Assembly (NCBI GenBank): GCA_963815215.1
Contig: CAWFFU010000004.1
Span: 128,001 to 192,000 of the forward strand
Source of the DNA: an uncultured Trueperaceae bacterium
GTDB taxonomy: Bacteria > Deinococcota > Deinococci > Deinococcales > Trueperaceae
Direction: 5' to 3'
DNA length: 64,000 nucleotides
Under the pieces are notes generated by a model. That model saw only the letters and a list, made by a program, of their open reading frames with translations. It did not search any database and was not told where the DNA came from. Below are positions 14,879 through 42,717 of the stretch, piece by piece. Position 1 is the first letter of the stretch. The number at the start of each line of letters is the position of its first letter. The position numbers were made by a program, and so were the translations under genes.

Positions 14879-16108
14879 TCAGTAGAGCAGCGCCAGCGCC
14901 GAAGGATCCTCCACCAGCTCCAGCAGCCGGTCGGCCCACGCCGCCGCCGCGCCGAGCTCGACGCGGGAGCGGTCGAACGCCAGGCGCAGGGTCAGCGCGG
15001 TACGGACCGCTGGAGCCCCGTCGACGGCGAGGACGCGTTCGGCCAGCCTGCCGGCGACCAGGCTCACGACGCCTTCGTGCGGCGCGCTCTCGCCGGACAG
15101 CTCGGTGCGAGCGCGGGTGAGGTCGAGCAGCGAGAGTGCGGGAACGGAATCCGTCTCCGCCGACCCGGCATCCCGCGCGGCAGCAGCCTCCCGCGCACTC
15201 ACGACGGCGTTCAGGCCGACCGAGCCGGCGTCTTCGAGGCGCGCGTCGCTCAGGGAGCCGTCGGCCACGCGGCGGTATCGCAGGCCGTGCGGCGTACCCG
15301 CGTGGGTTTCGACCAGAGGGTTGCGCGCCCACACGGCGGCCAGGAACCGTGCCAGCAGGTCGCCGACGTCGACCCCTGCGGTGTCGCCCGCCCCGCCTGT
15401 CGGCGTCCGGCGTCGCGCCCAGGCCACCACGGCCAGGAGCGGCGCGGCGTCGACCTCCCGGACGAACTCCGTCCAGCTCCCTGGCGCGAAGGGAGCGCCG
15501 AGGTAGGTCGGGGAGGGACGGGGAGCCCGCTCCGCCGCCCGCAGCACGTCCGCGGCGAGCACGGCACCCTCCGGCCCGCTCCCCTCGAGCACGGCCACAT
15601 CCAGTCCGCGCTCCGACGCCAGCCGACGCGCCTTCGGGGACGCCGGGGTGAGGCGGTACGGACCTGGGCGGTCGCTGGCGGCAGGGAGAGCGGTTCGTGG
15701 CGCGGCGGCCATCGATGGGCTGCCGGTGGTGGGCGCGCCCGTGGTGGTGGGCGCGCCCGTTCCGGGCTGCACGGGGCCGTTGGCCCCCGGTCGCGGGGTC
15801 CCGGCCGGTGCCCGCTCGGGCGTGGCAGTGTCCGGCTTCGGGGGGCGCCCGGAGGTATCCGCAGCTTCCCCTGCTGCGAGGATCACGGCGATGACGCTCC
15901 CCACCTTCACCTCGTCGCCGGCTGTGGCCGTGACGCGGGCGAGGGTGCCGGAGGCGGGCGCGTCGAGCTCCATGGTGGCCTTGTCGGTCTCGACCTCCAT
16001 GATGGGCTCGCCCTGCTCGACCTGCTCCCCCTCCTGCTTGAGCCAGGAGAGGAGCACGGCGGTGTCCTGGTTCATCCCCAGGACCGGCATGATGACGTCC
16101 TTGGCCAC
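14879..16108 (-). CDS. 2-oxoacid/acetoin dehydrogenase E2-like protein: lipoyl and E1/E3-binding domains with degenerate acyltransferase domain
   Basis: EVETDKAT lipoyl-Lys motif; ASPKARRLA...GSGPEGAV PSBD; C-terminal LAFDRSRVELG in place of DHRxxDG. Confidence 0.85.
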   Translation of the reverse strand: MAKDVIMPVLGMNQDTAVLLSWLKQEGEQVEQGEPIMEVETDKATMELDAPASGTLARVTATAGDEVKVGSVIAVILAAGEAADTSGRPPKPDTATPERAPAGTPRPGANGPVQPGTGAPTTTGAPTTGSPSMAAAPRTALPAASDRPGPYRLTPASPKARRLASERGLDVAVLEGSGPEGAVLAADVLRAAERAPRPSPTYLGAPFAPGSWTEFVREVDAAPLLAVVAWARRRTPTGGAGDTAGVDVGDLLARFLAAVWARNPLVETHAGTPHGLRYRRVADGSLSDARLEDAGSVGLNAVVSAREAAAARDAGSAETDSVPALSLLDLTRARTELSGESAPHEGVVSLVAGRLAERVLAVDGAPAVRTALTLRLAFDRSRVELGAAAAWADRLLELVEDPSALALLY

Positions 16109-16135
16109 GGCTCTCCTTCGTCGCTCGCGCGCAGG

Positions 16136-17519
16136 CTAGTGCTTGCCGTCCGGACCGACCGCGCCCGTGTCGGCGGCGGCCGGCGCGCCCGGCACGCCGG
16201 GCTTGCCGTCGGGGAAGATGCGGCCGTTGTTGTAGTTCGACTCGGTCTCGCGCACGCCGGGGAGATCGCCGAGCGCGGTGTAGTACTTGGGCCCGGCGAC
16301 CATCAGCTCTTCGGCGGGGAATCGGCTGATGACCTCGCAGCCGTCCTTGGTCACCACCAGCTCTTCCTCGATGCGGGCGGCCGACCAGCCGTCGCTGGCG
16401 GGCCAGAAGGTCTCGAGCGCGAACACCATGCCCTCTTCGATGACCTCGGGGTGGTCGAGGCTGAACAGCCGGCTGAAGATGGGCTTCTCCCAGATGTTGA
16501 GGCCGAGCCCGTGGCCGTACTGCAGGGCGAAGGCGAGCTCCTCGTTGGGGAAGCCGAACTCCTGGGCCTTGGGCCAGATCGACACCACTTCGGCGGTGGT
16601 GACGCCGGGCTTGATGAGGCTGATGGCGTGGTCGAGCAGGTCGCGGCACTTGGCGTAGGCGTCGACCTGGGCCTGGCTGGCGCTGCCGACGGCGAAGGTG
16701 CGGTAGTAGCAGGTGCGGTAGCCCATGTAGCTGTGCAGGATGTCGAAGTAGGCGGGGTCGCCGGGACGCAGCATGCGGTCGGACGCGACGTGGGGGTGGG
16801 GGTTGCAGCGTTCGCCGCTGATGGCGTTGACGCCCTCGACCATCTCGCTGCCGTGGCGGTAGAGGAAGTCGCTCACCAGGCCCGACCAGATCGTTCTCGC
16901 GCACGCCAGGGCGGAGCTTCTCGTAGAGCTGGTCGTAGGCGGCGTCGACCATGGAGGAGGCGTGGGTGAGCAGCATGATCTCGTCGACCGTCTTGATCTT
17001 GCGGGCCTCGAGCATGAGCTGCTGGCCGTCGATGACGGTGATGCCCGCCTTCTGCAGCGCGAACAGCACCGGCGGCTCGACGATGTCGATGGCGACCGGG
17101 TCGCCGGCCAGGCCGCGCTGGTCGAGCTCGTCCTTGATCCAGCGCGCCACTTGCTCGGCGCGGCCCATCTCGGGGCTGATGGTGCCGCGCAGCATCGACA
17201 CGCCGGGTCGCGAGCGCTTCTCGCCGTCGAGCCAGGGGGCGTAGAGCTGGTGGTGCTTGGCCGCCGAGCCGAAGTCCCACAGGATGGGCTCGTCGTTCTG
17301 CGGCAGCAGGGTGAAGCGCGCCACCTTGTCCTGCGCCCAGGTACCGATGTGGGTGGCCGTGATGTAGCGGACGTTGTTCATGTCGAAGCACAGCAGGGCT
17401 CCGGCCTCGGACTCCGCCAGCACCTTCTTGATGCGTGCCAGTCGCTCGTTGCGGAGGCGCTCGAAGTTGACGCGCTCCTCCCAGTCGACCGCCATGACGC
17501 CGTGGGTATGAATGGCCAT
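16136..17519 (-). pseudogene. M24 (Xaa-Pro peptidase/creatinase/DddP-fold) family protein, split by a +1 frameshift at ~16881-16883
   Basis: N-part GALLCFDMNNVRY...RKIKTVDEI...RPGVRENDLV continues in another frame as LVSDFLY...GYRTCYYRT, YGHGLG, FALETF, RIEEE; removing one G of GGG restores a 460-aa ORF. May be a sequencing indel. Confidence 0.85.
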
Positions 17520-17562: not shown

Positions 17563-18582
17563 TCAGGCGGGAGGGCACATCTCGCGCGCGAGCGCGGTCA
17601 GTTGCTTGGGCGTGGGGACGGTGACGTCCTCGAGGACGGGGGAGAAGGGCACGGGGACGTCCATCGCGCCCATCCTCCGCACCGGCGCGTCGAGGTGATA
17701 GAAGGCGCCGTCGGCGATGACCGCCGCCAGCTCGGCGCTGGCGCCGTAGCTCTGGTGGCCTTCGTCCACCACCACCACCCGGCCGGTCTTCCTGGCCGAC
17801 GCGATGAGGGTGTCGGCGTCGAGTGGCGCGAGCGAGCGCGGGTCGACCACCTCGGCGGAGATGCCGTGGGCCTCGAGCTGCTCGGCCGCCTGCAGCGCCA
17901 CCAGGACCATGCTGCTGGTGGCGACGAAGGTGATGTCGGTGCCGGCACGCTTGACCTCGGCCTGGCCCAGCGGGATGATCAGCTCGCCCTCGGGCACCGG
18001 CCCCTTGTCCTGGAAGCTGAGCTTGTCCTCGACGATCACGACCGGGTTGTCGTCGCGGATGGCCGCCTTCATCAGGCCCTTGGCGTCCCGCGGCGTGGCG
18101 GGCAGCGCCACCTTCAGCCCCGGGATGTGGCTCACCCAGGCGTGGAGACTCTGGCTGTGCTGGGCGGCGCTCCTGCGGGTGGCGCCGAGGGTGGTGCGGA
18201 GCACCATCGGCACCTTGAGCTTGCCGCCGGACATGTAGTGCGTCTTGGCGGCCTGGTTGACGAGCTGGTCCATCACCAACGTCAGGAAGTCGCCGAACAT
18301 GAGGTCGACCACCGGACGCATGCCGGTCATGGCGGCGCCGACCGCCACGCCGGTGAAGCCGGCTTCGCTGATGGGCGTGTCGCGCACCCGTTCGGGGCCG
18401 AACTCCTCGACCAGGCCGGAGAGTACCTTGAACGGGGTGCCGGCCTCGGCGACGTCCTCGCCCAGGATGAACACGCGCGGGTCGCGGCGCATCTCCTCGG
18501 CGAGCGCCTCGTTGACGGCCTGGGAGAAGGTGATGGTGCGGGCCGGACCCTCCTTGGAGAGCGTGCGGCTAGGCGTAGACAT
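17563..18582 (-). CDS. ThDP-dependent dehydrogenase E1 beta subunit (AcoB/PdhB-like)
   Basis: FILGEDV, GPERVRDTPISEAGF, AMDQLVNQAAK-like VMDQLVNQAAK, AAQHSQS, EVVDPRSLAPLD. Confidence 0.95.
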   Translation of the reverse strand: MSTPSRTLSKEGPARTITFSQAVNEALAEEMRRDPRVFILGEDVAEAGTPFKVLSGLVEEFGPERVRDTPISEAGFTGVAVGAAMTGMRPVVDLMFGDFLTLVMDQLVNQAAKTHYMSGGKLKVPMVLRTTLGATRRSAAQHSQSLHAWVSHIPGLKVALPATPRDAKGLMKAAIRDDNPVVIVEDKLSFQDKGPVPEGELIIPLGQAEVKRAGTDITFVATSSMVLVALQAAEQLEAHGISAEVVDPRSLAPLDADTLIASARKTGRVVVVDEGHQSYGASAELAAVIADGAFYHLDAPVRRMGAMDVPVPFSPVLEDVTVPTPKQLTALAREMCPPA

Positions 18583-19609
18583 GCAGCGTGACCTCGCTCT
18601 CGTCGGGGTAGGGCGCTTCGAGCCCGAAGGCCACGGCCGCCTCGGCTTCGGCCCGGACCTCGGCCTCGACGGCCTCGAGCTCGGCGGCGGTGACGATGCC
18701 CCGCTCCGTCAACCAGGCGGCATACAGGGTGAGGGGGTCGCGCTCGCTCCTCCAGTGCGACTCCTCGTCCTTGGAGCGGTAGTAGTCGCGCTGGATGTCG
18801 CCGACGTGGTGCCCGTAGTAGCGGTAGGTGTGGGCCAGCAGGAACGAGGGCCCGTCGCCCCGACGCGCCCGGGCCACCAACTCGCCGGCCACCGCGCTGA
18901 CGGCGGTCACGTCCTGCCCGTCGACCTCCGCGGTGTGGATGCCGAAGGCGCGAGGGCGGTCGAGGATGGCGCCGGCGGTGGTCTCCTCGAAGTGGGTGTA
19001 CTCGTTGTAGAGGTTGTTCTCACACACGTAGAGCACGGGGAGCTTCCAGAGCTGCGCCATGTTCATGACCTCGTACAGCAGCCCCTGCCCGAGCGCGCCT
19101 TCGCCGAAGAAGCACACGGCCACGCGGTCCGTGCCCTGCATCCTGGCCGACAGCGCCGCGCCGGTGGCGATCCCGGCGCTGCCGCCGACGATGGCGTTGG
19201 CTCCGAGGTTGCCGTTCTCCTGGTCCGCGATATGCATGCTTCCGCCCTTGCCGCGGTTGTAGCCGGACGCCTTGCCCAGCAGTTCGGCGAACATCAGGTC
19301 GACCCGCGCGCCCTTGGCGATGCAGTGACCGTGCCCCCGGTGGGTGCTGGTGATGTAGTCCTCACGGGTGAGAGCGTCGCACACGCCGACCGCGACGGCC
19401 TCCTCCCCTGCGTACATGTGGGTGAGGCCGGGCATCTTGGCGCTCAGGTAGAGGTCGTTGGCGTGCTCCTCGAACACCCGGATGCGCATCATCTGCCGGT
19501 AGCTGTAGAGGTGCCGCGGTGGGTCGGAGTCGGCGGACACGCCGGCCCCCGGCGCCTTGCGGCCCGCCCTTTCATTGGAGGACGTGCTTGCTGTGGGTCG
19601 ACCCTTCAC
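18569..19609 (-). CDS. ThDP-dependent dehydrogenase E1 alpha subunit (AcoA/PdhA-like)
   Basis: STHRGHGH, GKGGSMH, FFGEGA...CENN ThDP motif, TYRYYGH; AAGGAG RBS before GTG 19609 (alternatives 19627, 19675). Confidence 0.95.
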   Translation of the reverse strand: MKGRPTASTSSNERAGRKAPGAGVSADSDPPRHLYSYRQMMRIRVFEEHANDLYLSAKMPGLTHMYAGEEAVAVGVCDALTREDYITSTHRGHGHCIAKGARVDLMFAELLGKASGYNRGKGGSMHIADQENGNLGANAIVGGSAGIATGAALSARMQGTDRVAVCFFGEGALGQGLLYEVMNMAQLWKLPVLYVCENNLYNEYTHFEETTAGAILDRPRAFGIHTAEVDGQDVTAVSAVAGELVARARRGDGPSFLLAHTYRYYGHHVGDIQRDYYRSKDEESHWRSERDPLTLYAAWLTERGIVTAAELEAVEAEVRAEAEAAVAFGLEAPYPDESEVTLHVYA

Positions 19610-19661
19610 GCGGTGCTCCTTCCCCATGGAGCGGGAGCCGGCCGGGGCCGCGGATGGCGGC

Positions 19662-20411
19662 TCAGGCGGCGTCACCGTCCGGCTTGTCGTCGTGGTCGCT
19701 GGTCTCGGGACCGGTCGTCTTGAGGGCCTGCCGGCTGTCCTCGCGCACCTGTGCGAGGTGGGCCAGCATCGCTGTCCGGGCGGCGTCCGCGTCCCCCGCC
19801 TCGATGGCGGCGAGGATGACGCGATGGTGGCGCTGGCCGCGCGTCGGGCCGCCGCTCACCTGGAAGATGTGCCCCCTGAGTTCCTGCAACAGATCCACGA
19901 CCGAGTCGAGCAGGCGGGGGACGAAGTGGTTCTGGGTGGCGACGGCGAGGGCGACGTGGAAGCGGTTGTCGGCCTCGATGAAGGTCTTGGCGTCGTCCAG
20001 TGCGAGGTCCATGGCGTGGACGGCGGCCCGCAGGCTCTCGAGATCGGCGTCGCTGCGCCGCAGGGCGGCGCGGGCGGCGATCTCGGGCTCCAGCAGCTCC
20101 CGAACCTCGACCATGCCGCCGATACGCTCCTCGGAGGCGAACCCCATCATCAGGCGCAACGACTGCGTGAAGGCCTTGGCGGTGCCGTCGACGACGAACG
20201 TGCCTTGGCCGCGGCGCACCTCGACCAGGCCGTTCTGGATGAGCGTCTTCATGGCCTCGCGGATGACGGTCCGGCTGACGCCGTAGCGTTCCCCGAGGCT
20301 GCGCTCGTTGGGCAGCTGGTCCCCGCTCGTGAGCTCGCCCGAGAGGATCTGATGGCGGATCCTCTCCACGACCTGCTCGTAGAGCTTGCGGTGTTGAAGC
20401 ACATCCGTCAT
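19662..20411 (-). CDS. GntR family regulator, FadR subfamily (wHTH + FCD)
   Basis: GDQLPNERSLGERYGVSRTVIREA, RRGQGTFV, EVRELLE, DNRFH, HRVILAAIEAGD...MLAHL. Confidence 0.95.
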   Translation of the reverse strand: MTDVLQHRKLYEQVVERIRHQILSGELTSGDQLPNERSLGERYGVSRTVIREAMKTLIQNGLVEVRRGQGTFVVDGTAKAFTQSLRLMMGFASEERIGGMVEVRELLEPEIAARAALRRSDADLESLRAAVHAMDLALDDAKTFIEADNRFHVALAVATQNHFVPRLLDSVVDLLQELRGHIFQVSGGPTRGQRHHRVILAAIEAGDADAARTAMLAHLAQVREDSRQALKTTGPETSDHDDKPDGDAA

Positions 20412-20449
20412 AGTGCAAACCCATGCATCAGATGAAATCTCTTGCAGGA

Positions 20450-20731
20450 GGTATGGTGGTAATACCTCTGTTGGGATGGAGCGAACCTAGCATGTGCCAA
20501 GGCGCCCTGTCAAGGAAACGAGGGGGTGCGAGGGGTTTGACACGCCCATCTCGGTGTGCTAACGTTGGGCGCGTCCACAACTTGATTATGTAGGCTTTGC
20601 GATTCCTTGCGAGCCGGCGCGTCCAGCCCTGTCCGGGGCGGAGATCCGGCCCAACCAGAAGGGTGGTCCAGGCGCCCGAAGTGATCGTTTCCGTTCGGTG
20701 GTATGACCACCACACCACTAATAGTTATCGA
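20450..20731. promoter_or_regulatory. Divergent promoter cassette A with two FadR-type operators
   Basis: Leftward TTGACA(20513-20508)-18-TAGGTT(20489-20484); rightward TTGACA(20537-20542)-17-TAACGT(20560-20565); GGTAT(G/T)ACCACCA boxes at 20450-20469 (minus) and within 20696-20731 (plus). Confidence 0.8.
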
Positions 20732-20838
20732 GCGTGCGTTGCCGAGTCCGGGGCGGTCGGAGCCGCAGCCTGCGGGGCATCGCAGGCGTCCGAGCGCGCC
20801 GGCGACACCGTCGCGGACAGCGTGGAGGAGAACGTGAC

Positions 20839-21717
20839 ATGGCGAGACTAGGATTCGTTGGCCTCGGGGTGATGGGCGGCCGCGTGGCCAAGCGGTTGAT
20901 GGATGCGGGCCACACGGTCACCGGCTACAACCGCACGCGCGCCAAGGCGCGCTGGCTGGAGGATGCCGGCATGGCCTGGGGCGCCACCCCGCGGGCGGTC
21001 GCCGAGGCCTCCGACATCGTGTTCACGATGGTGACCAACACGACCGCCCTGGAGGCCGTGACACAGGGCGAGGACGGCGTCCTGGCCGGACTCGTCGAGG
21101 GCAAGATCTACATCGACATGAGCACGGTCAGCCCGGCCTACAGCCGGGATCTAGCCGCCAGCGTCAAGCTGCGCGGCGCGACCATGCTCGATGCGCCGGT
21201 GTCGGGCAGCGTGGAGACCCTCGAGCAGGGCAAGCTCACCTTCATGGTGGGCGGCGAGCGCAGCGACTTCGAGAAGGTCGAGCCCATCTTGCTGAACGTG
21301 GGGCCGAAGGCTACGCACGTCGGTGCCAACGGGCTGGCGGTGACCATGAAGATCGCCACCAACCTGAGCCTGGCCGTGCAGATGCTGGCCTTCAGCGAAG
21401 GGCTGCTGCTGGCCGAGCGCAGCGGGATCGCCCGGGAGACGGCGACGGAGGTGTTGCTGAACAGCGTCATCGCCTCCCCGATGGTCAAGTACCGTGGCCC
21501 CTTCGTGCTGGCGATGCCGGACGAGGCCTGGTTCGACGTGAACATGATGCAGAAGGACATGAACCTGGCCCTCGAGCTGGGTCAGGAGGTCAACGTCATG
21601 TTGCCCACCACGGCCGCGACCAACGAGATGTTGACCGCCGCCCGCGGGCTGGGGCTGGACAAGCAGGACTTCGCCGTCGTGTTCGAAGTGCTCTCGCGTC
21701 TCTCCGGGGGGAGCTGA
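20839..21717 (+). CDS. NAD(P)-dependent beta-hydroxyacid dehydrogenase (3-hydroxyisobutyrate/tartronate semialdehyde reductase family)
   Basis: GFVGLGVMG, YNRT, DMSTVSP, LDAPVSG, catalytic MKIATN; GGAGGAG RBS. Confidence 0.92.
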   Translation: MARLGFVGLGVMGGRVAKRLMDAGHTVTGYNRTRAKARWLEDAGMAWGATPRAVAEASDIVFTMVTNTTALEAVTQGEDGVLAGLVEGKIYIDMSTVSPAYSRDLAASVKLRGATMLDAPVSGSVETLEQGKLTFMVGGERSDFEKVEPILLNVGPKATHVGANGLAVTMKIATNLSLAVQMLAFSEGLLLAERSGIARETATEVLLNSVIASPMVKYRGPFVLAMPDEAWFDVNMMQKDMNLALELGQEVNVMLPTTAATNEMLTAARGLGLDKQDFAVVFEVLSRLSGGS

Positions 21718-21721
21718 GCTC

Positions 21722-23212: not shown

Positions 23213-23354
23213 CCGGGGTCGAGCCGTTCATGCCACGCCGCATCCCCGGAGGGAGGTGACCGCGACCACCTGAGCGAACCGTACGCCGAGGGGCACGGAT
23301 GGATCGAGACAGCCGAGGATCCGACCGGAAGACGCAGGACCTGGAGGTAGTGAG

Positions 23355-24545: not shown

Positions 24546-24560
24546 GCCTCTCGCATATGC

Positions 24561-24595: not shown

Positions 24596-24660
24596 CTCAG
24601 GACCCCGCCGGCGGGGCGCGTCCTGGTGGACGTCCCCAGCGCCGGCGCACGAGGAGTTCC

Positions 24661-35090: not shown

Positions 35091-35180
35091 GCTGCGGGTC
35101 GGGCGGGACCGCGGCGCGCGCGGGGCGCGACCGCAAGATTCGAAGGCGCGTGCGCGGCACGGGCCGGAAGGAGTGAGACC

Positions 35181-35810
35181 GTGGAGAAGCAACGTATCAG
35201 CTACGTCGACCCCAAGACGCTGGAGGATCCGAAGATGCTCGAGGAGCTCCAGCGTTGCGCCCGCGAGGGCACACCCCGGCCGGAGAGCTCGGCGGTGCGC
35301 GCGCACGTGCCGGCCGTGTTCTGGTCGTTCGCGAACGGCTGGCGCGACGTCTTCAAGCACGGCGTGTGCGACCACGCCATCAAGGAGCTGTGCCGCGTGT
35401 ACGTGTCGCGCTCGGTGAAGTGTGAGTACTGCGGCAACCAGCGCTCCATGACGGCGGCCCGGGACGGCCTCCAGGAGGAGGACTACCGCGCCCTGATGGA
35501 GTTCGAGAGCTCCGAGCGCTACGACGACCGCCAGAAGGCCGCGCTGTCGCTGGCTCAGGCGATGGCCTGGCACTCCGACCTGAGCGACGACGACTGGGCA
35601 CGCCTGCACCGGCACTTCAGCGAGCCGGAGCTGGTCGAGCTCGGCTACTTCATCGGCCTCACGCTCGGTCAGCAGAGCTTCCTGAGGTTGCTGAACATCG
35701 GGCATCACGAGGTGCTGGACCTCGGTGACGCCTCGCTGGCCCCGGGCTTCGAGACCAGGGATGCGATGGACCGGACGCGTGCGTCGGAGGACTACTGGGC
35801 GCGCAAGTAG
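35181..35810 (+). CDS. Carboxymuconolactone decarboxylase / AhpD-like protein with CxxC
   Basis: KELCRVYVSRSVKCEYC, DDRQKAAL, LHRHFSEPELVEL; AAGGAG RBS. Confidence 0.85.
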   Translation: MEKQRISYVDPKTLEDPKMLEELQRCAREGTPRPESSAVRAHVPAVFWSFANGWRDVFKHGVCDHAIKELCRVYVSRSVKCEYCGNQRSMTAARDGLQEEDYRALMEFESSERYDDRQKAALSLAQAMAWHSDLSDDDWARLHRHFSEPELVELGYFIGLTLGQQSFLRLLNIGHHEVLDLGDASLAPGFETRDAMDRTRASEDYWARK

Positions 35811-35844: not shown

Positions 35845-37314
35845 TCAGTCGTCCTGCGAGAAGTCCATCTGGATGGCCTTCACCCGGCTGAAGCTTCGCA
35901 TCGCTTCGAGGAAGTCCTTCTTGCGCCCGACGCCGCTGCGCTTGTAGCCGCCGAAGGGCAGGCCCAACTCGCCGGTGTTGACACGGTTGACCGACACGAC
36001 GCCCGCCTCGATGCGCGTCGCCATGCGGTGGGCCACGCCCAGGTCGCGGGTCCATACGCCGCTGGTGAGTCCGTAGTCGACGGCGTTGGCGATGGCCACT
36101 GCTTCGTCCTCGTCTTCGAAGGGCAGGATGCCGGCCACCGGCCCGAACACCTCGGTGGTCATGATCTCGGCATCGGGCGCGGCCTCGGTGACGATCGTCG
36201 GCGGCACCCAGAAGCCGCCCTCCAGGCGAGCGTCCGAGGGCACGTCGGCGCGGGCGGGGATGCAGGCTCCGGCGGCGACGGCGCGGTCCAGGGCGCCCTG
36301 CACCTTCTCCTGCTGGCGCTTGCTCACCATCGGGCCCACGATGGAGCGCTCGTCGAACCCGTCGCCGACGCTCAGGCCGGCGACCGCCGAGGTGAAGCGC
36401 TCCATGAAGGTGGTGTAGATGGACTCGTGCACCAGCACCCGTTCGCTGCCCGAGCACGCCTGGCCGCTGTTGAAGAAGGCGCTGCGCACCATGCCCTGCA
36501 CCGCTCGGCCGAGGTCGGCGTCGGGGAAGATGATGGACGCGTTCTTGCCGCCCAGCTCCATCATGGTGGGCAGGATGCGGGTGGCGGCCGCGGCGAGGAT
36601 CTTCTCGCCGGTGAGGTCCGAGCCCGTGAAGGCGATGAAGTCGATGCCTCGGTGCGCCACCAGCTGCACCCCGGTATCGACGCCGCCGGTCACGACGTTG
36701 AGCACGCCTGGCGGCAGCACGTCGGCGGCCAGCTCGGCGATGCGCAGCGACGACAGCGGCGTCTCGGGCGCGGGCTTGAGCACCACGGTGTTGCCGGTGG
36801 CGAGCGCCAGCGCCGCGAAGTCCGCGGTGTGCATCGGAGGCCAGTTCCAGGGGATGATGACGGCCACCACTCCGTAGGGCTCGTAGACGATCTTGCGCAT
36901 CTCGCTCAGGCCGTCGTAGACGCTCTGGCCGTAGAACTTGTCGGCTGCGCCGGCGTAGAAGCGGAAGGTGCGCGCGGCGTTGGTGACGTCGCGCGCCGAC
37001 TGGGCGCGCGGCTTGCCGTTCTCCCAGGTCTCGAGGTCGACGAGCTCGTCGTGGTGTTCGTGGATGCGGCGGGCGATCTCGAACAGCATCGCGCCGCGCT
37101 TCTCGGGACTCACCCAACGCCAGCCGCGGTAGGCCTGCCGGGCCGAGACGACCGCCCGGTCGACGTCGGCCTCGCTGGCCGCCGGCGCCTCGCCGAGCAC
37201 CTGCCCGGTGGCGGGGTTGATGACCTCCAGCGCTGTCGCGCCGCCGCCGTCGACGAACTCCCCGCCGATGAGCATCTTCCAGCTTGCGTGGTCCTTGTAG
37301 GGGTGGTAGGCCAT
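35845..37314 (-). CDS. Aldehyde dehydrogenase
   Basis: IIPWNWP, LKPAPETPLS, FTGS, MELGGKN, NSGQACS, EVFGPV, PFGGYKRSGVGR; AAGGAG RBS. Confidence 0.95.
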   Translation of the reverse strand: MAYHPYKDHASWKMLIGGEFVDGGGATALEVINPATGQVLGEAPAASEADVDRAVVSARQAYRGWRWVSPEKRGAMLFEIARRIHEHHDELVDLETWENGKPRAQSARDVTNAARTFRFYAGAADKFYGQSVYDGLSEMRKIVYEPYGVVAVIIPWNWPPMHTADFAALALATGNTVVLKPAPETPLSSLRIAELAADVLPPGVLNVVTGGVDTGVQLVAHRGIDFIAFTGSDLTGEKILAAAATRILPTMMELGGKNASIIFPDADLGRAVQGMVRSAFFNSGQACSGSERVLVHESIYTTFMERFTSAVAGLSVGDGFDERSIVGPMVSKRQQEKVQGALDRAVAAGACIPARADVPSDARLEGGFWVPPTIVTEAAPDAEIMTTEVFGPVAGILPFEDEDEAVAIANAVDYGLTSGVWTRDLGVAHRMATRIEAGVVSVNRVNTGELGLPFGGYKRSGVGRKKDFLEAMRSFSRVKAIQMDFSQDD

Positions 37315-37454
37315 CCGCTGTCTCCTTCGCCGGGGGCCGTCCCCGGCGGGCCGCCACACGACCTCGGGCGCCTGCGGCCTACGCCGCGCGCCCAGGATCG
37401 CTGGAGTGTCCGCCAGAGTGCAAGCGCATACACAGGATGTAAGGTCTTGCAGGA

Positions 37455-37733
37455 CGTATGGTGGTCATACCTCTCAGGCTCGTCGTGAACGTAGCATGTT
37501 CCTCGCGTCCCTGTCAAGGAACGCGGCGCCGGATCGGGGTTTGACAGCCCCGCGCCGTTGTGCTAGTTTGAGCGGCGTCCACAACTTGCTTATGGTACCC
37601 TCACCGCTACGCTCGAGCGGCCCGGGCACCGCTTCACTTGGCGAAGCTGTCCACGGTCCAAGGAGCCGCTCGCATGCGACGTCGTTCATCGAACTTCCGG
37701 TGGTATGACCACCACACCACGAATACTTATCGA
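37455..37733. promoter_or_regulatory. Divergent promoter cassette B, homologous to cassette A
   Basis: Leftward TTGACA(37517-37512)-18-TACGTT(37493-37488); rightward TTGACA(37541-37546)-17-TAGTTT(37564-37569); GGTATGACCACCA boxes at 37455-37474 (minus) and within 37698-37733 (plus). Confidence 0.8.
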
Positions 37734-38019
37734 ACTTCCTGTCGATTCCTGGAACGGCGGCGCACCGTCGCGCGTACGTGCGGCCCGATCCTGCGCTCCC
37801 GTCCCCTGTCGGCCGCCTCGCGGCCCTCGTCCGGTGTGTTCTCACTGGAGGTGTTCGTTCACGGCATGGCGGTCGCCCACGTTCCGGCGGCGCGGTCCTC
37901 CATGCGTAGCGGGGAGGTGAGCGGGTCCATCTGACAGGGCGCGCCGAGCGTACGTGGGGTCCGCCCGACGTGCCGCCCAGAACACCTTAGGCATCACCTG
38001 CTTGCCCTTGGAGGCAGAC

Positions 38020-39219
38020 ATGTACAAGAGGATCACGGCGCTCGTCGCCGCGGCCGCGCTGCTGGCAGTGCTCGGCTTCGCAGCGGCGCAGGGCCCCATC
38101 AAGATCGGTATCTCGCTCTCGCTCTCTGGCGACTTCTCGGCCGACGGCCAGGGCTTCCAGAACGGCTATCAGCTATGGGCGGACCACGTCAACGCGACCG
38201 GCGGGCTTCTCGGGCGGCAGGTGCAGCTCGACATCGTCAACGACAACTCGAGCCCCGACCAGGTCCAGACCAACTACCAGAAGCTCATCACGGTGGACAA
38301 GGTGCCGTTGATCCTGGGGCCGTTCTCGACGCTGCTCACCAAGCCCGCTTCGGTGGTGGCGAACCGCTACGGCTACGCCATGGTGGAGGGCGCGGGCGGC
38401 GCGCCGTCGGTCTTCAACCGCGGGCTGAACAACGTCTTCGACGTGGCGCTCCCGGTCATCAACGACCTCGACAGCTTCACCCAGTACATCCTCTCGCTGC
38501 CGGCTTCACAGCGGCCCAAGACGGTGGCCTACGCGACCAATGACGATCCCTTCACGCAGCCGCAGGTCGAGCGTTCGCGCAAGTTGTTCGAGGCCGCCGG
38601 CCTGAAGACGGTGTCGTTCCAGACCTATCCGTCGGAGACGACCGACTTCAACCCCATCGCCGACAAGATCATCCAGTCGAAGGCCGATCTGGTCGTGGCG
38701 GGCACCTTCATGCCCGACATCGTGGCCTTCGTGCAACGCTTCCGGCAGCAGCACTACAACCCCCAGGGTCTGGTCGCCACGGCCGGGCCCGACCTCGGCT
38801 CGCAGTTCATCCAGGCCGTCGGCGGAGCGCAGAACGCCGAGGGCATCCTGGTGCCGAACACCTGGTACCCGGGCGCCGACAATGCGGGCAACGCCGACTT
38901 CGTCAAGGCCTACATCGCCAAGTACGGCGGCAAGGCCGCCGACATCAACGGTGATGCGGCCGAGGGCTACGCCGCGGGCCAGGTCCTGCAGGCCGCCGTC
39001 GAGAAGGTGGGCAGCCTCGACAACGCCAAGATCATCGCCGAGCTCCACTCCGGCGACACCTTCAAGAGCATCCTCGGCGATGTGACCTTCAACGGCGTGG
39101 GCGAGAACACCGCGGCCAAGGCGTACCTGTTCCAGTGGCAGAAGGGCCAGTACCTGCCCGTCTACCCGGACAGCGCAGCGGTGGCTCCGTTCGAGTTCCC
39201 CAAGCCGGCCTGGAAGTGA
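38020..39219 (+). CDS. HAAT ABC substrate-binding protein 2 (paralogue of SBP 1)
   Basis: GGAGG RBS; AAAQGPIKIGISL, GGLLGRQV, VEGAGGAP, LPASQRPKT, QWQKG shared with SBP 1. Confidence 0.92.
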   Translation: MYKRITALVAAAALLAVLGFAAAQGPIKIGISLSLSGDFSADGQGFQNGYQLWADHVNATGGLLGRQVQLDIVNDNSSPDQVQTNYQKLITVDKVPLILGPFSTLLTKPASVVANRYGYAMVEGAGGAPSVFNRGLNNVFDVALPVINDLDSFTQYILSLPASQRPKTVAYATNDDPFTQPQVERSRKLFEAAGLKTVSFQTYPSETTDFNPIADKIIQSKADLVVAGTFMPDIVAFVQRFRQQHYNPQGLVATAGPDLGSQFIQAVGGAQNAEGILVPNTWYPGADNAGNADFVKAYIAKYGGKAADINGDAAEGYAAGQVLQAAVEKVGSLDNAKIIAELHSGDTFKSILGDVTFNGVGENTAAKAYLFQWQKGQYLPVYPDSAAVAPFEFPKPAWK

Positions 39220-39239
39220 AGTGAGGAACTCCGGGTTCT

Positions 39240-39269
39240 GGAGGGACGGCGCGCGAGCGCCGTCCCTCC
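39240..39269 (+). terminator. Stem-loop after SBP gene 2
   Basis: ggagggacggcgc-GCGA-gcgccgtccctcc 13-bp stem with GNRA loop; no U tract. Confidence 0.6.
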
Positions 39270-39342
39270 CTCACCATCGCGGCGCCCGTCGGCCAGGGCG
39301 GGCGCGCGAGCGACGCGCCGTCACCGACTGCGGACGCGAGCC

Positions 39343-40218
39343 ATGCGCATAGTCGTCGACGCCATCATCACGGGCGTGCTCTCCGGCGGGATCTACGTTC
39401 TCATGGCGCTCGGGCTGACGCTGATCTTCGGTGTGATGGACATCATCAACGTGGGTCAGGGAGCGCTCGTGATCCTGGGTGCCTACCTCAGCTACGTCCT
39501 GCAGCAGTACCTCCACATCGACCTGTTCCTCGGGCTGCTCATCACCATGCCCGTGATGTTCGGGCTCGGGGTGGCGCTGGAGGCGGCCTTCGTGCGCCCC
39601 ATCCGCTGGGAACGCACCACCCTGTCCATCCTCGTCACCTTCGCTATCGCGCTGCTCATCCAGGGGGCGTTGTCGCTCGTATTCTCGACCAACCTGGTGC
39701 AGATGCACGCCTGGTACGTCGATCACTCGGTGAAGATCGGCAGCTTCTACCTGGCGTGGGTCTATATCTTCGACTTCCTGCTGAGCGTGGTGCTGGTGAC
39801 CGGGCTCTACCTGCTCCTCAACCGCACCAAGTTCGGTGCGAGCCTGCGCGCCTCGATGCAGAACCGCACGGCCGCGCAGCTCATCGGCATCGACGTCGAG
39901 CGGGTCTCGGCGATCACCTTCGGTATCGGGGTGGCGTTGGCGGCGGCCGGGGGCATGGCCTACGGCGCGACCTCGGCGTTCAACCCCAACAGCCAGTACG
40001 ACCTGATCTCGCGCCTGCTGGCGATCATCATCCTGGGAGGCATGGGCAGCCTGCGCGGCGCCGTCATCGCAGGCCTCGGGATGCTCGTCGTCGAGGACGT
40101 CACCTCGGTGGTGTGGTCGCCGGTGTGGGCCAGCACGGTGTTCTACATGGCCCTGGTGCTGGTGCTGGTGGTCCGGCCGCAGGGCCTGTTCGGACGCCTC
40201 GCAGGAAGGCAGCAATGA
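39343..40218 (+). CDS. HAAT ABC permease (LivH-like)
   Basis: ALGLTLIFGVMDIINVGQG, LGGMGSLRGA, RPQGLFG. Confidence 0.93.
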   Translation: MRIVVDAIITGVLSGGIYVLMALGLTLIFGVMDIINVGQGALVILGAYLSYVLQQYLHIDLFLGLLITMPVMFGLGVALEAAFVRPIRWERTTLSILVTFAIALLIQGALSLVFSTNLVQMHAWYVDHSVKIGSFYLAWVYIFDFLLSVVLVTGLYLLLNRTKFGASLRASMQNRTAAQLIGIDVERVSAITFGIGVALAAAGGMAYGATSAFNPNSQYDLISRLLAIIILGGMGSLRGAVIAGLGMLVVEDVTSVVWSPVWASTVFYMALVLVLVVRPQGLFGRLAGRQQ

Positions 40219-41264
40219 AGACCCTGCGCCCCGTCCTCCTGCTCGTCCTGCTGGCTCTGGCGGTCGTGTTCCCGCTGCTGTTCCCCAACCCCGCGGTCGA
40301 CACGGTGGCGGTCCTCACCGTCCTCTTCGCGACCGCGGTCACCGCCTGGAACGCCTTCTCGGGCTACAGCGGTTACATCTCCATCGGCCACGCGGCGTTC
40401 TTCGGCATCGGTTCCTACGCCGTCGCCATCTTGTGCCAGGACTGGCACGTCCCCGGCGGATACCTGCCCTTCCTGCTGCTGCCGGTCGCCGGGCTCATCG
40501 CCGTGGTGTTCGCCGTCCCGATGGGCTGGGTGGCGCTCAGGACGCGCAAGCACACCTTCGTCATCCTGACCATCGCGATGTTCTTCATCATGCAGCTCAT
40601 GGCGTTCAACCTCCGCGGCCTCACCAACGGCTCGCGGGGCATGAGCCTGCCCATCCCCACCCACTGGAGCGGCGCCTTCTACGACCTGCCCTTCTACTAC
40701 GTGGGGCTGGCCCTGCTGCTGCTGGCGCTGGCGGTCTCGTGGTGGATCCGCAACTCCAAGTACGGCCTGGGTCTGCTGGCGATCCGCGACGACGAGGATC
40801 GCGCCCGCGGCCTCGGCGTGCGTACGGGAGCGTTCAAGCTCACCGCCTTCGTGATCGCCGCCTTCTTCTTCGGGATGGTCGGCGGCCTGCACGCCTACTT
40901 CGTGGAGTCGATCTTCCCGGCTTTCGCGTTCGACCCGCTGATCGACCTGATGGTCGCCCTGATGGCGTTCCTGGGCGGACTCGGCACGCTGGCGGGGCCG
41001 GTCCTGGGGGCCGTGATCCTGGAGCCGGCCCAACAGTACTTCACCATCTGGTTCAGCCGGCCCGGCTACTACCTGATGATCTACGGGGCGCTGTTCCTGG
41101 TCATCATCCTGCTCCTGCCCCAGGGCATCATCCCTGCCCTGCGCGCCCGCTTCACGCGCTCCGAGGCGCTGGCGGGACCGGTACGGCACACTGAGGGCGG
41201 CGACGGCCTGTCGGGAGCGGCCGTGGCCGCCGAGGGTGAGCCGGAACGAGGGGGTGGAGCATGA
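40215..41264 (+). CDS. HAAT ABC permease (LivM-like)
   Basis: WNAFSGYSGYISIGHAAFFG, AIRDDEDRA, GGLGTLAGP, LPQGI. Confidence 0.93.
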   Translation: MKTLRPVLLLVLLALAVVFPLLFPNPAVDTVAVLTVLFATAVTAWNAFSGYSGYISIGHAAFFGIGSYAVAILCQDWHVPGGYLPFLLLPVAGLIAVVFAVPMGWVALRTRKHTFVILTIAMFFIMQLMAFNLRGLTNGSRGMSLPIPTHWSGAFYDLPFYYVGLALLLLALAVSWWIRNSKYGLGLLAIRDDEDRARGLGVRTGAFKLTAFVIAAFFFGMVGGLHAYFVESIFPAFAFDPLIDLMVALMAFLGGLGTLAGPVLGAVILEPAQQYFTIWFSRPGYYLMIYGALFLVIILLLPQGIIPALRARFTRSEALAGPVRHTEGGDGLSGAAVAAEGEPERGGGA

Positions 41265-41992
41265 GCCTGCTCGCGGCAACGGCGGTGTCGAAGGCGTTCG
41301 GAGGCGTGCAAGCGCTCGACAACTGCTCGATCACGGTCGAGAAGGGGAGCCTCACCGGGCTCATCGGCCCCAACGGCTCGGGCAAGACCACGTTGTTCAA
41401 CGTCATGACCGGCTACGAGACGGTGGACGCCGGCGAGGTCGCCTTCGCCGGCAAGCCCATCACCAATGCCACTCCCGACCGGGTGTTCCAGCTCGGCGTC
41501 GGCCGCACCTTCCAGCTCACCCGCATCTTCCCGCGCCTGACGGTGCTGGAGAACATGCACGTGGCGGCGCAGCGGCAGGGGTGGCGGGCGTTGTTCGGGC
41601 GCTGGAGCTCGTCGGGGGAGCACCAGAGGGCCTTGGAGCTGCTCGATTTCGTGGGCCTCACCCGCCTCAAGGACGTGCCCGCGCGCAACCTCTCCTACGG
41701 CCAGAAGAAGCTGCTGGAGTTCGCCTACGTGCTGGTGGCCGAGCCCGAGGTGATCCTGCTCGACGAGCCCGCCGGCGGCGTCAACCCGACGATGATCCGC
41801 TACCTTACCGAGCGGATCCGCGAGCTCAACGAGCGCGGGGTGACCTTCCTGATGGTGGAGCACAACATGGAGTTCGTGATGGGGCTATGCGACCGCGTCG
41901 TCGTCATGAACCACGGCGAGACGATCGCCGACGGCGACCCTGAGACCGTCCGCAACGATCAACAGGTCCTCGAAGCCTACCTGGGGGCATGA
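41261..41992 (+). CDS. HAAT ABC ATPase (LivG-like)
   Basis: [29 protein letters not shown]. Confidence 0.94.
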   Translation: MSLLAATAVSKAFGGVQALDNCSITVEKGSLTGLIGPNGSGKTTLFNVMTGYETVDAGEVAFAGKPITNATPDRVFQLGVGRTFQLTRIFPRLTVLENMHVAAQRQGWRALFGRWSSSGEHQRALELLDFVGLTRLKDVPARNLSYGQKKLLEFAYVLVAEPEVILLDEPAGGVNPTMIRYLTERIRELNERGVTFLMVEHNMEFVMGLCDRVVVMNHGETIADGDPETVRNDQQVLEAYLGA

Positions 41993-42717
41993 GCATGCTT
42001 CTCGAGTTGCGCAAGGTGACGGCCGGCTACGACGGCAGCGACGTGCTCAAGTCCCTCGACCTCACGGTGGAGGAGGGTTCGGTCACCTGCATCGTCGGGC
42101 CCAACGGCGCCGGCAAGTCGACGGTGCTCAAGGTGGTGAGTGGCCTGCTCAAGCCGCGGCGCGGCGAGATCGTCTTCAAGGGGCGCGGCGTCACCGGCCT
42201 CAACCCCCGCGGGGCGCTGGCGCTCGGCATCGTCCAGGTGCCGCAGAACCACAGCCTGTTCCCCGACATGACGGTGCGGGAGAACGTGCGCCTGGGTGGC
42301 TTCACCATCGCCGACACGGCCCTGGTCGACGAACGCATGCGTGAGGTCGAGGCCATGTTCCCGATCGTGAAGGCGCGCGCCGGAGAGAAGGCGGGCAACC
42401 TCTCGGGCGGTCAGCAAAGGCTGGTGGAGTTCGCCCGCTCGCTGATGCTCGATCCCGAGATGATCCTGCTCGACGAGCCCTCGATGGGCCTCGACCCGAA
42501 GACCTCGAAGGCCGTGTTCGAGACCGTCGCCCGCATGCACCAGGGGGGCCGCACCATCCTCCTGGTCGAGCAGAACGTTCGGGCCGGCCTCGCCATCGCC
42601 ACCCACGGCATCGTGCTGGAGAGCGGGCAGGTGCGTCTCGAAGGCTCGCACGACGAGGTCCTCGGCAACCCACAGATCGGCAGGCTCTACCTCGGCACCG
42701 CCCTCGCCGACGCCTGA
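41989..42717 (+). CDS. HAAT ABC ATPase (LivF-like)
   Basis: [29 protein letters not shown]. Confidence 0.94.
   Translation: MSMLLELRKVTAGYDGSDVLKSLDLTVEEGSVTCIVGPNGAGKSTVLKVVSGLLKPRRGEIVFKGRGVTGLNPRGALALGIVQVPQNHSLFPDMTVRENVRLGGFTIADTALVDERMREVEAMFPIVKARAGEKAGNLSGGQQRLVEFARSLMLDPEMILLDEPSMGLDPKTSKAVFETVARMHQGGRTILLVEQNVRAGLAIATHGIVLESGQVRLEGSHDEVLGNPQIGRLYLGTALADA

Follow-up and report, generated by a model that had tools for sequence, protein, structure and literature searches.

The described systems closest to the locus analysed here are the AcoABCL and pyruvate dehydrogenase (PDH) complexes with a heterotetrameric E1, the non-peptidase members of the M24 fold (the DMSP lyase DddP, creatinase and the ectoine hydrolase DoeA), the 2-amino-3-carboxymuconate-6-semialdehyde decarboxylase ACMSD, the 2,6-dihydroxypseudooxynicotine (DHPON) hydrolase and KdhLMS of nicotine catabolism, and the FadR-subfamily GntR repressors of the PdhR, LldR and NanR type. 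In nicotine catabolism Kdh is paired with DHPON hydrolase, the picolinate pathway also has an amidohydrolase_2 decarboxylase and an alpha/beta hydrolase, and creatinase, like the M24 proteins described below, has an altered M24 metal site. Proteins resembling parts of these systems are encoded together by 25 genes at positions 14879-42717 of a 64,000-nucleotide stretch of DNA (the window) from an uncultured Trueperaceae bacterium (GenBank assembly GCA_963815215.1, contig CAWFFU010000004.1, positions 128,001 to 192,000 of the forward strand). With somewhat more confidence than doubt, this cluster is read here as a catabolic regulon for a small organic compound, governed by a single repressor and built from two widely reused modules. 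Module A would comprise two Liv-type importers, an EamA transporter, an ACMSD-type decarboxylase, a CrtI-like flavoenzyme, a DHPON-type hydrolase, a metal-free, creatinase-like M24 protein (M24b), a Gfo/Idh/MocA oxidoreductase, a CMD protein and two aldehyde dehydrogenases (ALDH1 and ALDH2). Module B would comprise a beta-hydroxyacid dehydrogenase of the HIBADH type, the alpha and beta subunits of a thiamine diphosphate (ThDP)-dependent E1, a DddP-like M24 protein (M24a) with the ligand set D-C-H-E-E, and an E2-like lipoyl protein. The gene set was not found described in the full-text literature searched, and PDB and NCBIfam gave no match to a described pathway; an earlier note on this DNA had likewise been unable to match the genes to one, and no orthologous and syntenic characterised pathway was met in these searches. 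The passages of PMC10873849 that matched the search terms concern the sad genes and make no mention of the M24/E1 genes.

The G+C content of the window is about 70%, so that a plain listing of open reading frames (ORFs) was swamped by spurious frames; genes were called by third-position GC (GC3) frame analysis, followed by Pfam, NCBIfam and PDB sequence searches, and the gene content and coordinates obtained (Table 1) are those that the earlier note had listed. The E2-like, M24a, E1 beta, E1 alpha and regulator genes are on the minus strand and end at 20411; the plus-strand block (20734-35810) consists of the HIBADH-like, ALDH1, first Liv system, EamA, Amidohydro_2, flavoenzyme, hydrolase, M24b, Gfo and CMD genes; ALDH2 is on the minus strand; and the second Liv-type ATP-binding cassette (ABC) system occupies 37954-42717. 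Two divergent intergenic cassettes face these genes, and gene orientation and spacing suggest four transcription units.

Table 1. Genes and candidate regulatory sites of the cluster, in window coordinates.
Feature	Position	Strand	Matches and remarks
E2-like lipoyl scaffold, 409 aa	14879..16108	-	Biotin_lipoyl 3.1e-17, E3_binding 4.1e-10
M24a, DddP-like M24	16136..17519	-	N part 17519-~16885, C part 16876-16136
ThDP-dependent E1 beta	17563..18582	-	Transket_pyr 3.4e-46, Transketolase_C 7.4e-41
ThDP-dependent E1 alpha	18569..19675	-	E1_dh 4.6e-75
GntR-family regulator, FadR (FCD) type, presumed regulon repressor	19662..20411	-	GntR HTH 5e-25, FCD 7.3e-30
Divergent promoter cassette 1	20412..20733	.	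homologous to cassette 2
Cassette 1 promoter, hand-read	TTGACA 20537-20542, TAACGT 20560-20565	+
Cassette 1 promoter, hand-read	-35 20508-20513, -10 20484-20489	-
Cassette 1 candidate operator cores	20454-20466 (-, 1 mismatch); 20700-20712 (+)
Beta-hydroxyacid dehydrogenase (HIBADH / tartronate-semialdehyde-reductase-like)	20734..21717	+	NAD_binding_2 2.3e-48, NAD_binding_11 8.4e-22
ALDH1	21722..23212	+	Aldedh 1e-146
Liv-type substrate-binding protein 1 (SBP1)	23355..24545	+	Peripla_BP_6 1.6e-60
ABC permease LivH type 1	24661..25542	+	BPD_transp_2 3.8e-31
Fused LivM-type permease and LivG-type ATPase, 620 aa	25539..27401	+	BPD_transp_2 1.7e-36, ABC_tran 1.1e-27
LivF-type ATPase 1	27398..28135	+	ABC_tran 1.5e-28
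EamA/DMT transporter	28223..29155	+	EamA 1.4e-20, two repeats
ACMSD-like amidohydrolase_2 decarboxylase	29152..30159	+	Amidohydro_2 1.5e-37
CrtI/CrtO-like (COG1233-type) FAD oxidoreductase	30200..31780	+	Amino_oxidase 1.3e-20
DHPON-hydrolase-like alpha/beta hydrolase, putative C-C hydrolase	31773..32831	+	2jbw E 2.6e-47, residues 5-348
M24b, creatinase/prolidase fold, 1/5 metal ligands left	32824..34029	+	Peptidase_M24 5.3e-28, Creatinase_N 6e-7
Gfo/Idh/MocA oxidoreductase	34083..35090 (start uncertain 34026-34083)	+	GFO_IDH_MocA 1.8e-25, C3 domain 3.4e-24
CMD/AhpD-like protein	35181..35810	+	CMD 22.8 bits
ALDH2, aminoaldehyde/betaine-aldehyde-dehydrogenase-like, read from cassette 2	35845..37359	-	Aldedh 1.3e-154
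Divergent promoter cassette 2	37400..37735	.	homologous to cassette 1
Cassette 2 promoter, hand-read	TTGACA 37541-37546, TAGTTT 37564-37569	+
Cassette 2 promoter, hand-read	-35 37512-37517, -10 37488-37493	-
Cassette 2 candidate operator cores	37459-37471 (-); 37702-37714 (+)
Liv-type substrate-binding protein 2 (SBP2)	37954..39219	+	Peripla_BP_6 7.6e-61
ABC permease LivH type 2	39343..40218	+	BPD_transp_2 4.1e-36
ABC permease LivM type 2	40215..41264	+	BPD_transp_2 1.1e-34
LivG-type ATPase 2	41261..41992	+	ABC_tran 5.8e-30, BCA_ABC_TP_C
LivF-type ATPase 2	41989..42717	+	ABC_tran 2.2e-32

One candidate operator for four putative transcription units

The regulator belongs to the FadR (FCD) subfamily by its helix-turn-helix (HTH) domain (PF00392, 87.4 bits) and its FCD domain (PF07729, 104.4 bits), both of which score above cut-off; like the described repressors of this subfamily it is encoded divergently and is putatively autoregulated, but every NCBIfam regulator model scores below its cut-off (best NanR, 152 bits versus 260). 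The two cassettes align at 78% column identity, in agreement with their earlier description as homologous and divergent, and when read by hand each carries, on both strands, a perfect TTGACA hexamer and a -10 element of the type TGnTAnnnT. The candidate operator core is the 13-bp sequence GGTATGACCACCA, which contains TGGT-N3-ACCA, the half-site pattern of FadR-type GntR operators. Two inverted copies of GGTATGACCACCA, 243-246 bp apart, are present in each cassette, an arrangement that differs from the described repressors. Allowing up to two mismatches, the core occurs five times in the window versus 0.71 times expected, and 0 of 100 shuffles reached five; four of these matches are in the cassettes and the fifth, with two mismatches, is inside the EamA gene. 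Within the whole 3.3-Mb genome, all three exact copies and one copy with a single mismatch are in the cassettes. The confinement of exact copies of a shared operator to the two cassettes argues for one co-regulated catabolic unit, as the earlier note had proposed. The blocks that contain the operators and promoters are conserved in related genomes from the survey described below, cassette 1 in G003, G007 and G019 (the last from another genus) and cassette 2 in G003 and G007; the stretch of G019 that was used for cassette 2 aligned poorly.

Just 3' of the plus-strand -10 element, both cassettes have a block GCGTCCACAACTTG.TTATG (20566-20600 and 37570-37600) that is conserved in the relatives and may correspond to the site of transcript initiation or to a leader element. 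The plus-strand leader extends over about 130-160 nt from cassette 1 and over about 380 nt from cassette 2.

Module A: importers, decarboxylase and hydrolase

Both HAAT (Liv) systems are complete, each with a Peripla_BP_6 binding protein, two BPD_transp_2 permease domains and two ATPases; the LivM-LivG fusion of the first is a single stop-free frame and is also fused in G003, G007 and G019. The binding proteins are 45% identical to each other and are nearest to amino-acid binders (E about 1e-25), the nearest PDB entries to SBP1 being 3ip5, 4n0q and LivJ. Because SBP1 has S, G, V and S in place of the ligand-contact residues of LivJ, which we take to be the contacts to the amino and carboxyl groups of the ligand, its own ligand is predicted to be something other than a standard amino acid.

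The ACMSD-like protein aligns with human ACMSD (2wm1) over residues 1-327 (E 8.3e-37; PF04909, 130.4 bits), and the HxH, His, His, Asp and two Arg positions of ACMSD, presumably its metal ligands, catalytic His and two substrate Arg, are conserved at 7/7. These features are those expected of an ACMSD-type amidohydrolase_2 decarboxylase; unlike ACMSD, the protein fits no NCBIfam model, and its cluster holds no tryptophan/kynurenine or nitrobenzoate partner and no 3-hydroxyanthranilate dioxygenase. The hydrolase resembles DHPON hydrolase, a C-C hydrolase of the FrsA-like alpha/beta group, along its full length and AntI (2e-16) and 'yellowish-green 1' proteins more weakly, and we assume all of these relatives to be retro-Claisen C-C hydrolases. 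Its Ser218, Asp301 and His329 are invariant in 15/15 aligned family members and form a putative catalytic triad, which may cleave either a C-C bond or an ester/amide bond. A xanthine-dehydrogenase-family Mo enzyme, as in KdhLMS, is encoded beside the hydrolase in relatives (see below); in contrast to nicotine catabolism, the genome under study has no Mo enzyme, no other part of the nicotine pathway is present, and the hydrolase family is much wider, being found in at least 585 species-level genomes (one genome per species), mostly of uncultured soil lineages.

The flavoenzyme falls short of the carotenoid families (CrtO, 281 bits versus 1000; crtI_fam, 109.6 versus 238.1), with a PDB match to 4dgk at 1e-17. 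M24b resembles creatinase in matching Creatinase_N (30.5 bits) and creatinase structures (7yto, 9e-8) and does not reach the creatinase equivalog; in a pairwise alignment its metal-ligand positions read E, Q, H, Q and G, so that of the ligands only His is kept. The best NCBIfam model for ALDH1 is lactaldehyde dehydrogenase (460.8 versus a cut-off of 650), methylmalonate-semialdehyde dehydrogenase is not among its 25 best NCBIfam models, and ALDH2 reaches 428 bits against a cut-off of 615. The CMD-like protein is marginal (PF02627, 22.8 bits versus 23), and a YciW-related model scores 58 versus 310. Among the Pfam matches of the cluster proteins there is no oxygenase family, as the earlier note had observed, and no acyl-CoA dehydrogenase or enoyl-CoA hydratase.

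Module B: an E1 with an M24 protein and an E2-like protein lacking the catalytic His

As in AcoABCL and PDH systems, one unit encodes the ThDP-fold subunits E1 alpha and E1 beta along with a lipoyl/E3-binding protein, and E1 beta exceeds the NCBIfam cut-off for the PDH E1-beta subfamily (389 bits versus 321). The unit differs from those systems in that E1 alpha is below its equivalog cut-off (TIGR03182, 326 bits versus 393.85), the cluster has no E3, an M24 protein is encoded between E1 beta and E2, an arrangement seen across phyla, and the core of E2 has no catalytic His. The beta-hydroxyacid dehydrogenase is likewise under the cut-off of every NCBIfam equivalog (best 211.6 versus 340.75; HIBADH, TIGR01692, 176 versus 291.6).

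The E2-like protein has a lipoyl domain (PF00364, 62.6 bits) and a peripheral-subunit-binding domain (PF02817, 40.1 bits), and its PDB matches are limited to residues 1-211. Its C-terminal core is homologous to E2 but matches the catalytic domain (PF00198, 2-oxoacid_dh) only at E 0.21 and 11.4 bits, lacking the His of DHRxxDG: when it is aligned with a genuine E2 that this module encodes in another phylum, the DHR motif of the latter reads DRS in the window and in G003 and DPG in G019, which bears out the earlier description of a degenerate E2. The protein has the highest dN/dS of the set relative to G003 (0.26, and 0.24 for the C-terminal core), a value at which it is being kept under selection without its catalytic His and is not decaying.

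M24a has the pita-bread fold and N-terminal domain of the non-peptidase M24 enzymes and aligns with DddP structures (4b28/4s01) over residues 17-404 (E about 1e-17), while prolidases match its catalytic domain. Scores against the models of the described members are nevertheless low: its N and C halves reach 59.5 and 41.2 bits with the DddP model (NF043017, cut-off 600), and the DoeA models give 25-41 bits against cut-offs of 575-613, so that by this measure neither DddP nor ectoine hydrolase is recovered. In pairwise alignment its five metal-ligand positions read D, C, H, E and E, and the Cys that replaces the second Asp, invariant in 10/10 orthologues, also sets it apart from DddP, creatinase and DoeA. 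Neither M24a nor M24b has the full D, D, H, E, E set of Xaa-Pro peptidases, so both active sites are altered, as reported in the earlier note. M24a has relatives in at least 8000 clusters (E 1e-60 or better), which are named solely 'Xaa-Pro aminopeptidase/peptidase', and is itself 66-70% identical between phyla; a protein atlas returned only generic 'Peptidase M24' clusters for M24a. A prediction of a complex between the E2-like protein and M24a gave a score of 0.00, which counts neither way.

As assembled, the M24a gene is split by a one-base insertion at 16879/16880, an extra G/C in a GGGCC run at which the two translations meet and near which (about 16880) the GC3 frame switches. The protein is an uninterrupted 460 aa in G003, and both halves are in one frame in G007 and G019. 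When contigs of four metagenome runs (X1-X4) were aligned to the stretch, the bridging contigs of X1, X3 and X4 omitted letter 16879 (depth 5.65/5.65, 6.08/6.08 and 30.6/30.6, respectively), and differed from the window at 9/740, 19/868 and 41/1249 other letters. No listed contig of X2 spans the site; two of its contigs stop fitting exactly there, and their loose 19 letters, read by hand, are the continuation of the window minus one G. The intact frame in three runs, together with a dN/dS of 0.10-0.15 for the halves of M24a relative to G003, shows that the frameshift is an assembly error or a private mutation, rather than a sign that the gene is decaying in the population. An assembly indel error at 16879-16880 is probable, and other homopolymer runs may possibly be affected as well.

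Conservation in near relatives

When a survey of near relatives was searched with the hydrolase, some match was obtained in 35 of its 41 genomes. Orthologues with 75-98% identity are present in 6/9 other genomes of the genus and 1/15 other genomes of the family, and in 0/16 genomes from other families of the order, where the best match is 29% identical. The full arrangement, including both flanking genes, is found in G003. G007 has kept all genes except that of the flavoenzyme, so that the ACMSD-like gene runs straight into the hydrolase gene (L021/L022); the flavoenzyme step must therefore be dispensable or replaced in that species. In G019 everything from the gene of the E2-like protein through that of ALDH2 is kept, without the second ABC system and the flanks. 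The hydrolase paralogues of G032 and G040 are 27-29% identical and have none of the other cluster genes nearby. Relative to G003, every one of the 25 cluster genes, and each of the two genes downstream of them, has a dN/dS between 0.07 and 0.26, which indicates purifying selection.

A quick tree of the hydrolase (63 rows, SH-aLRT supports, arbitrary root) was built from the 59 of the 80 loci described below that have a clean ORF of 330-420 aa, together with G000, G003, G019 and the G032 paralogue. Four Deinococci-type hydrolases and three sequences from metagenome-assembled genomes (MAGs) labelled Actinomycetota form a clade with support 98, and Actinomycetota, Chloroflexota and Armatimonadota are intermixed over the tree as a whole. 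This pattern fits transfer of the hydrolase between phyla, for which no donor is named and some MAG bins may be wrong.

Co-occurrence across phyla

Among 8000 scored candidates, 7335 are related to the hydrolase with an E value no higher than 1e-20, and identity among the top 120 is 69-100%; the top relatives are named from Deinococcales, Anaerolineae, Spirochaetia and Actinomycetota MAGs. Co-occurrence was counted in the best 80 of at least 585 loci, all from MAGs and belonging to Actinomycetota, Chloroflexota, Armatimonadota, Deinococcota, Spirochaetales and unclassified bacteria (at least five phyla), 43 of the 80 loci being at least 18 kb long; a gene counted as present if it lay within 10 kb of the hydrolase with at least 45% identity and 60% cover. 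The genes most often found were those of the Liv ATPase (47/80), binding protein (41/80), ACMSD-like protein (38/80) and flavoenzyme (37/80), followed by M24a (24/80), M24b (18/80), CMD (16/80), Gfo (14/80), E1 beta, HIBADH and EamA (10/80 each), E1 alpha (9/80) and ALDH (7/80), so the genes do co-occur across phyla around the hydrolase, as the earlier note required of its proposal. When all ORFs of the 80 loci, from a crude ORF caller, were clustered (at least 35% identity, 60% cover), several families missing from the window came to light: the large (29/80), 2Fe-2S (9/80) and FAD (7/80) subunits of a Mo hydroxylase, a LacI regulator, an E2 with an intact catalytic domain (E 1e-70), a Zn-dependent alcohol dehydrogenase (Zn-ADH, 16/80), small cupins (9 and 5 of 80), AKR (9/80), an ALS/IolD-like ThDP enzyme (9/80) and a creatininase-family protein (8/80). 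The genome under study, which is 97% complete, gave 0 matches to the Mo-hydroxylase family PF02738, in a search whose control was positive in 6/14 reference genomes.

Maps of gene order reveal two types of neighbourhood around the hydrolase, one of which resembles the window. In the Solirubrobacterales, the slot 3' of the hydrolase holds an ALDH2-type gene in L087, L089 and L090 and the Mo enzyme in L067, L079, L091, L093, L097, L100 and L101; the Mo enzyme accompanies 0/6 ALDH2-type and 5/6 ALDH1-type loci (13 ALDH ORFs were found). This exchange suggests a shared aldehyde substrate, in other words that the Mo enzyme oxidises the aldehyde of ALDH2 rather than hydroxylating a heteroaromatic ring. 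In the other type of neighbourhood, found in Streptosporangiales-like MAGs (L053, L056-L060, L064 and L088), the hydrolase is preceded by Liv ABC, cupin, a small unknown protein, Zn-ADH, the creatininase-family protein and the ALS/IolD-like ThDP enzyme and is followed by AKR and HIBADH. LacI is often present as well, and the whole has the look of a sister pathway.

M24a was found by tblastn on 54 plasmid records. On pP92_e of Phaeobacter inhibens the order is SDR, M24, E1 alpha, E1 beta, lipoyl protein, ALDH, E2 catalytic protein and Lpd, and an ABC system of the sugar type and a ThuA-domain gene adjoin it; in Paenarthrobacter ureafaciens the neighbours of M24a are a Liv-type ABC system, a fused E1, an amidase and a cupin; in Haloferax gibbonsii they are a ThDP protein, an oxidoreductase and a cupin; and in Rhodococcus opacus 1CP M24a is amid insertion sequences. 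The plasmid contexts of the latter three suggested no named pathway. The variety of these contexts shows that module B is a separable unit, which joins different uptake and upper-pathway genes.

Proposed pathway and alternative explanations

As a regulon of two modules, the cluster would work as follows. Without inducer, the repressor would occupy all four operators and block the four transcripts. The Liv-type systems would import a carboxylated cyclic compound unlike an amino acid, either an N-heterocycle or a hydroaromatic or cyclitol-like acid, which the ACMSD-type enzyme would decarboxylate and the flavoenzyme and Gfo/Idh/MocA protein would dehydrogenate. A hydrolytic C-C and/or C-N cut by the DHPON-type hydrolase and metal-free M24b, not an oxygenase, may then open or trim the product, and the resulting aldehyde would be oxidised. 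A short hydroxy- or oxo-acid would pass to module B for ThDP- and lipoyl-dependent oxidative cleavage by way of HIBADH, M24a and E1; since the acyl-transfer His is gone from the lipoyl protein, the lipoyl arm would have to give up its acyl group in another way or pass it to the cell's own E2.

Several observations weigh against this reading. All of its chemical steps are derived from family resemblance, M24a is frameshifted in the window as assembled, and a version without the Mo hydroxylase and the cupin may handle only a downstream or pre-oxidised compound. Neither the GntR regulator nor an E2-like protein lacking the His is near the hydrolase in any of the other loci (0/80 each), which use LacI (21/80) and a catalytic E2 (21/80). 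The genome-wide count of operator matches with up to one mismatch (8) equals that of a reversed-pattern control (8), so only the exact copies of GGTATGACCACCA are distinctive and the other four one-mismatch matches are no more than the control. An automatic scan called no promoter in either cassette, because the -10 hexamers fit the consensus at just 3/6 positions, and terminator-like sites in the window were at chance level in an automatic scan. The earlier proposal of a complete pathway is not supported, as the Mo hydroxylase (29/80), small cupin (14/80) and intact E2 of the relatives are missing here. Its nitrogenous or heterocyclic substrate is still a guess: the Mo hydroxylase of the relatives fits it, but the exchange with ALDH2 fits an aldehyde oxidoreductase equally well.

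A non-nitrogenous substrate, such as a cyclitol, a hydroaromatic acid or a sugar-like polyol, is the alternative that has to be weighed most seriously, unlikely as it is on present evidence; the Gfo protein and flavoenzyme would form ketones, the hydrolase would cut a 1,3-diketone, and the ThDP enzyme would cut a 1,2-dione or alpha-hydroxyketone. The presence of a Gfo/Idh/MocA dehydrogenase speaks for such a substrate, as do the solved relatives of the hydrolase with their presumed retro-Claisen role, its company of Zn-ADH, creatininase-family, ALS/IolD-like and AKR proteins, the sugar-type ABC system and ThuA-domain protein beside module B in Phaeobacter, and the lack of amino-acid contact residues in SBP1; the second neighbourhood type and the Phaeobacter plasmid would point toward cyclitol- or sugar-like chemistry. 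However, the importers are of the Liv/HAAT type and not of the sugar type, two M24-fold proteins resemble C-N hydrolases, the ACMSD-like enzyme retains both substrate Arg of ACMSD, and a xanthine-dehydrogenase-family Mo enzyme recurs in 29/80 relatives. Distinctly unlikely is the explanation that two or three unrelated pathways are merely adjacent, with the E1/M24a unit and the hydrolase unit serving different nutrients: module B is without module A on the Phaeobacter and Haloferax plasmids, many hydrolase loci have no E1, and G019 is without the second ABC system, but one operator core, with exact copies nowhere else in the genome, flanks all four units, M24a is within 10 kb of the hydrolase in several phyla, and all genes from that of the E2-like protein through ALDH2 move as one block between two genera.

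That the cluster belongs to one of the described pyridine-ring pathways (nicotine, nicotinate or picolinate type) is improbable. The strong likeness to DHPON hydrolase, its pairing with a Mo hydroxylase in relatives and the amidohydrolase_2 decarboxylase and alpha/beta hydrolase of the picolinate pathway are in favour of this; against these stand the absence of PF02738 from the genome, which leaves neither Ndh nor Kdh of the nicotine cluster, the lack of a ring hydroxylase or dioxygenase in the cluster, and the positional exchange of the Mo enzyme with ALDH2 in Solirubrobacterales. To our knowledge, M24a, M24b and the E1/E2 proteins have no counterpart in these pathways. Ordinary catabolism of branched-chain amino acids or peptides, by Liv uptake, Xaa-Pro peptidases, BCKDH and MmsB/MmsA-like HIBADH and ALDH, is what the automatic names ('Xaa-Pro aminopeptidase' for M24a), the fit of the ABC parts to Liv models and the 176 bits of HIBADH would imply, and is highly improbable: it fails because all equivalogs are under their cut-offs, the E2 has no catalytic His, the metal sites of both M24 proteins are incomplete, and acyl-CoA dehydrogenase and enoyl-CoA hydratase are missing; moreover E1 beta fits the PDH-type subfamily, methylmalonate-semialdehyde dehydrogenase is not among the 25 best models of ALDH1, and SBP1 has no amino-acid contact residues. 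Hardest of all to credit is a decaying relic that has lost its Mo hydroxylase and cupin, to which the dead E2, the frameshift in the assembly, the absence of the Mo enzyme and the loss of the flavoenzyme in G007 could be attributed, since both M24a halves and the E2-like core have low dN/dS, the frame is intact in the bridging contigs of 3/4 runs, and the operators are conserved in relatives. A resemblance to pantothenate degradation (amide hydrolase, hydroxyacid dehydrogenase, ALDH and oxo-acid dehydrogenase) is speculation, for which no gene-level paper was found.

An extension of the favoured two-module regulon, tentative and itself rather unlikely, is that HIBADH, E1, the Cys-bearing M24a and the lipoyl protein constitute a new ThDP/lipoyl cleavage system in which the M24 protein is an integral catalytic partner and which forms, with the hydrolase module, an oxygenase-free route. 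M24a might make the substrate of E1 by elimination or hydrolysis, or might discharge the acyl-dihydrolipoyl arm. If so, the role of M24a would explain why the system has stayed under selection after E2 lost its His, and the route would serve an N-heterocycle or hydroaromatic acid that is common in soil and is covered by no described pathway.

The pathway would in any case be a common one that has escaped description, as its core enzymes recur in many phyla of soil bacteria. The hydrolase and M24a families are very large, bear generic names only and are unusually similar between phyla (66-85% identity), and their carriers are mostly uncultured lineages of soil, sediment and freshwater. If the substrate were named, thousands of genes could be annotated in one stroke, and a carbon or nitrogen source widely used by oligotrophic soil bacteria would be identified. 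The M24 protein inside an E1/E2 unit and the His-less E2 under selection pose enzymological puzzles that can be put to the test in cultured carriers; those of M24a/E1 are Phaeobacter inhibens P92, Paenarthrobacter ureafaciens, Rhodococcus opacus 1CP (M24a) and Haloferax gibbonsii.

Borders and neighbouring genes

The term island, used in the earlier note, is loosely apt: the hydrolase tree mixes phyla, but there is no mobility gene among the Pfam matches of the cluster, no break in the base composition of the window at the cluster, and no credible border formed by a tRNA gene (ARAGORN) or by an integrase among the cluster Pfam matches. The single tRNA call of ARAGORN, a 90-nt tRNA-Gly(CCC) at 44112-44201, is inside the coding frame of the Fe-S/CCG protein described next and is probably a false positive.

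Downstream of the second ABC system, at 42744-47726, are genes for a 738-aa Fe-S/CCG-domain protein, which has Fer4 and two CCG domains after a first 330 aa without domain assignment, and an 866-aa PAS-PAS-GAF-HD (HD_5) signalling protein. This pair has no copy of the operator upstream; it is syntenic in G003 and G007 and is not at that position in G019. On the upstream side, the gene adjoining that of the E2-like protein (13153-14610) encodes a 485-aa NHL-repeat protein with a Glucodextran_B-like domain and is kept in G003 only. Further upstream, positions 8001-12000 have a lower G+C content (0.65-0.66) and a stronger GC skew (0.14-0.18) than the rest of the window.

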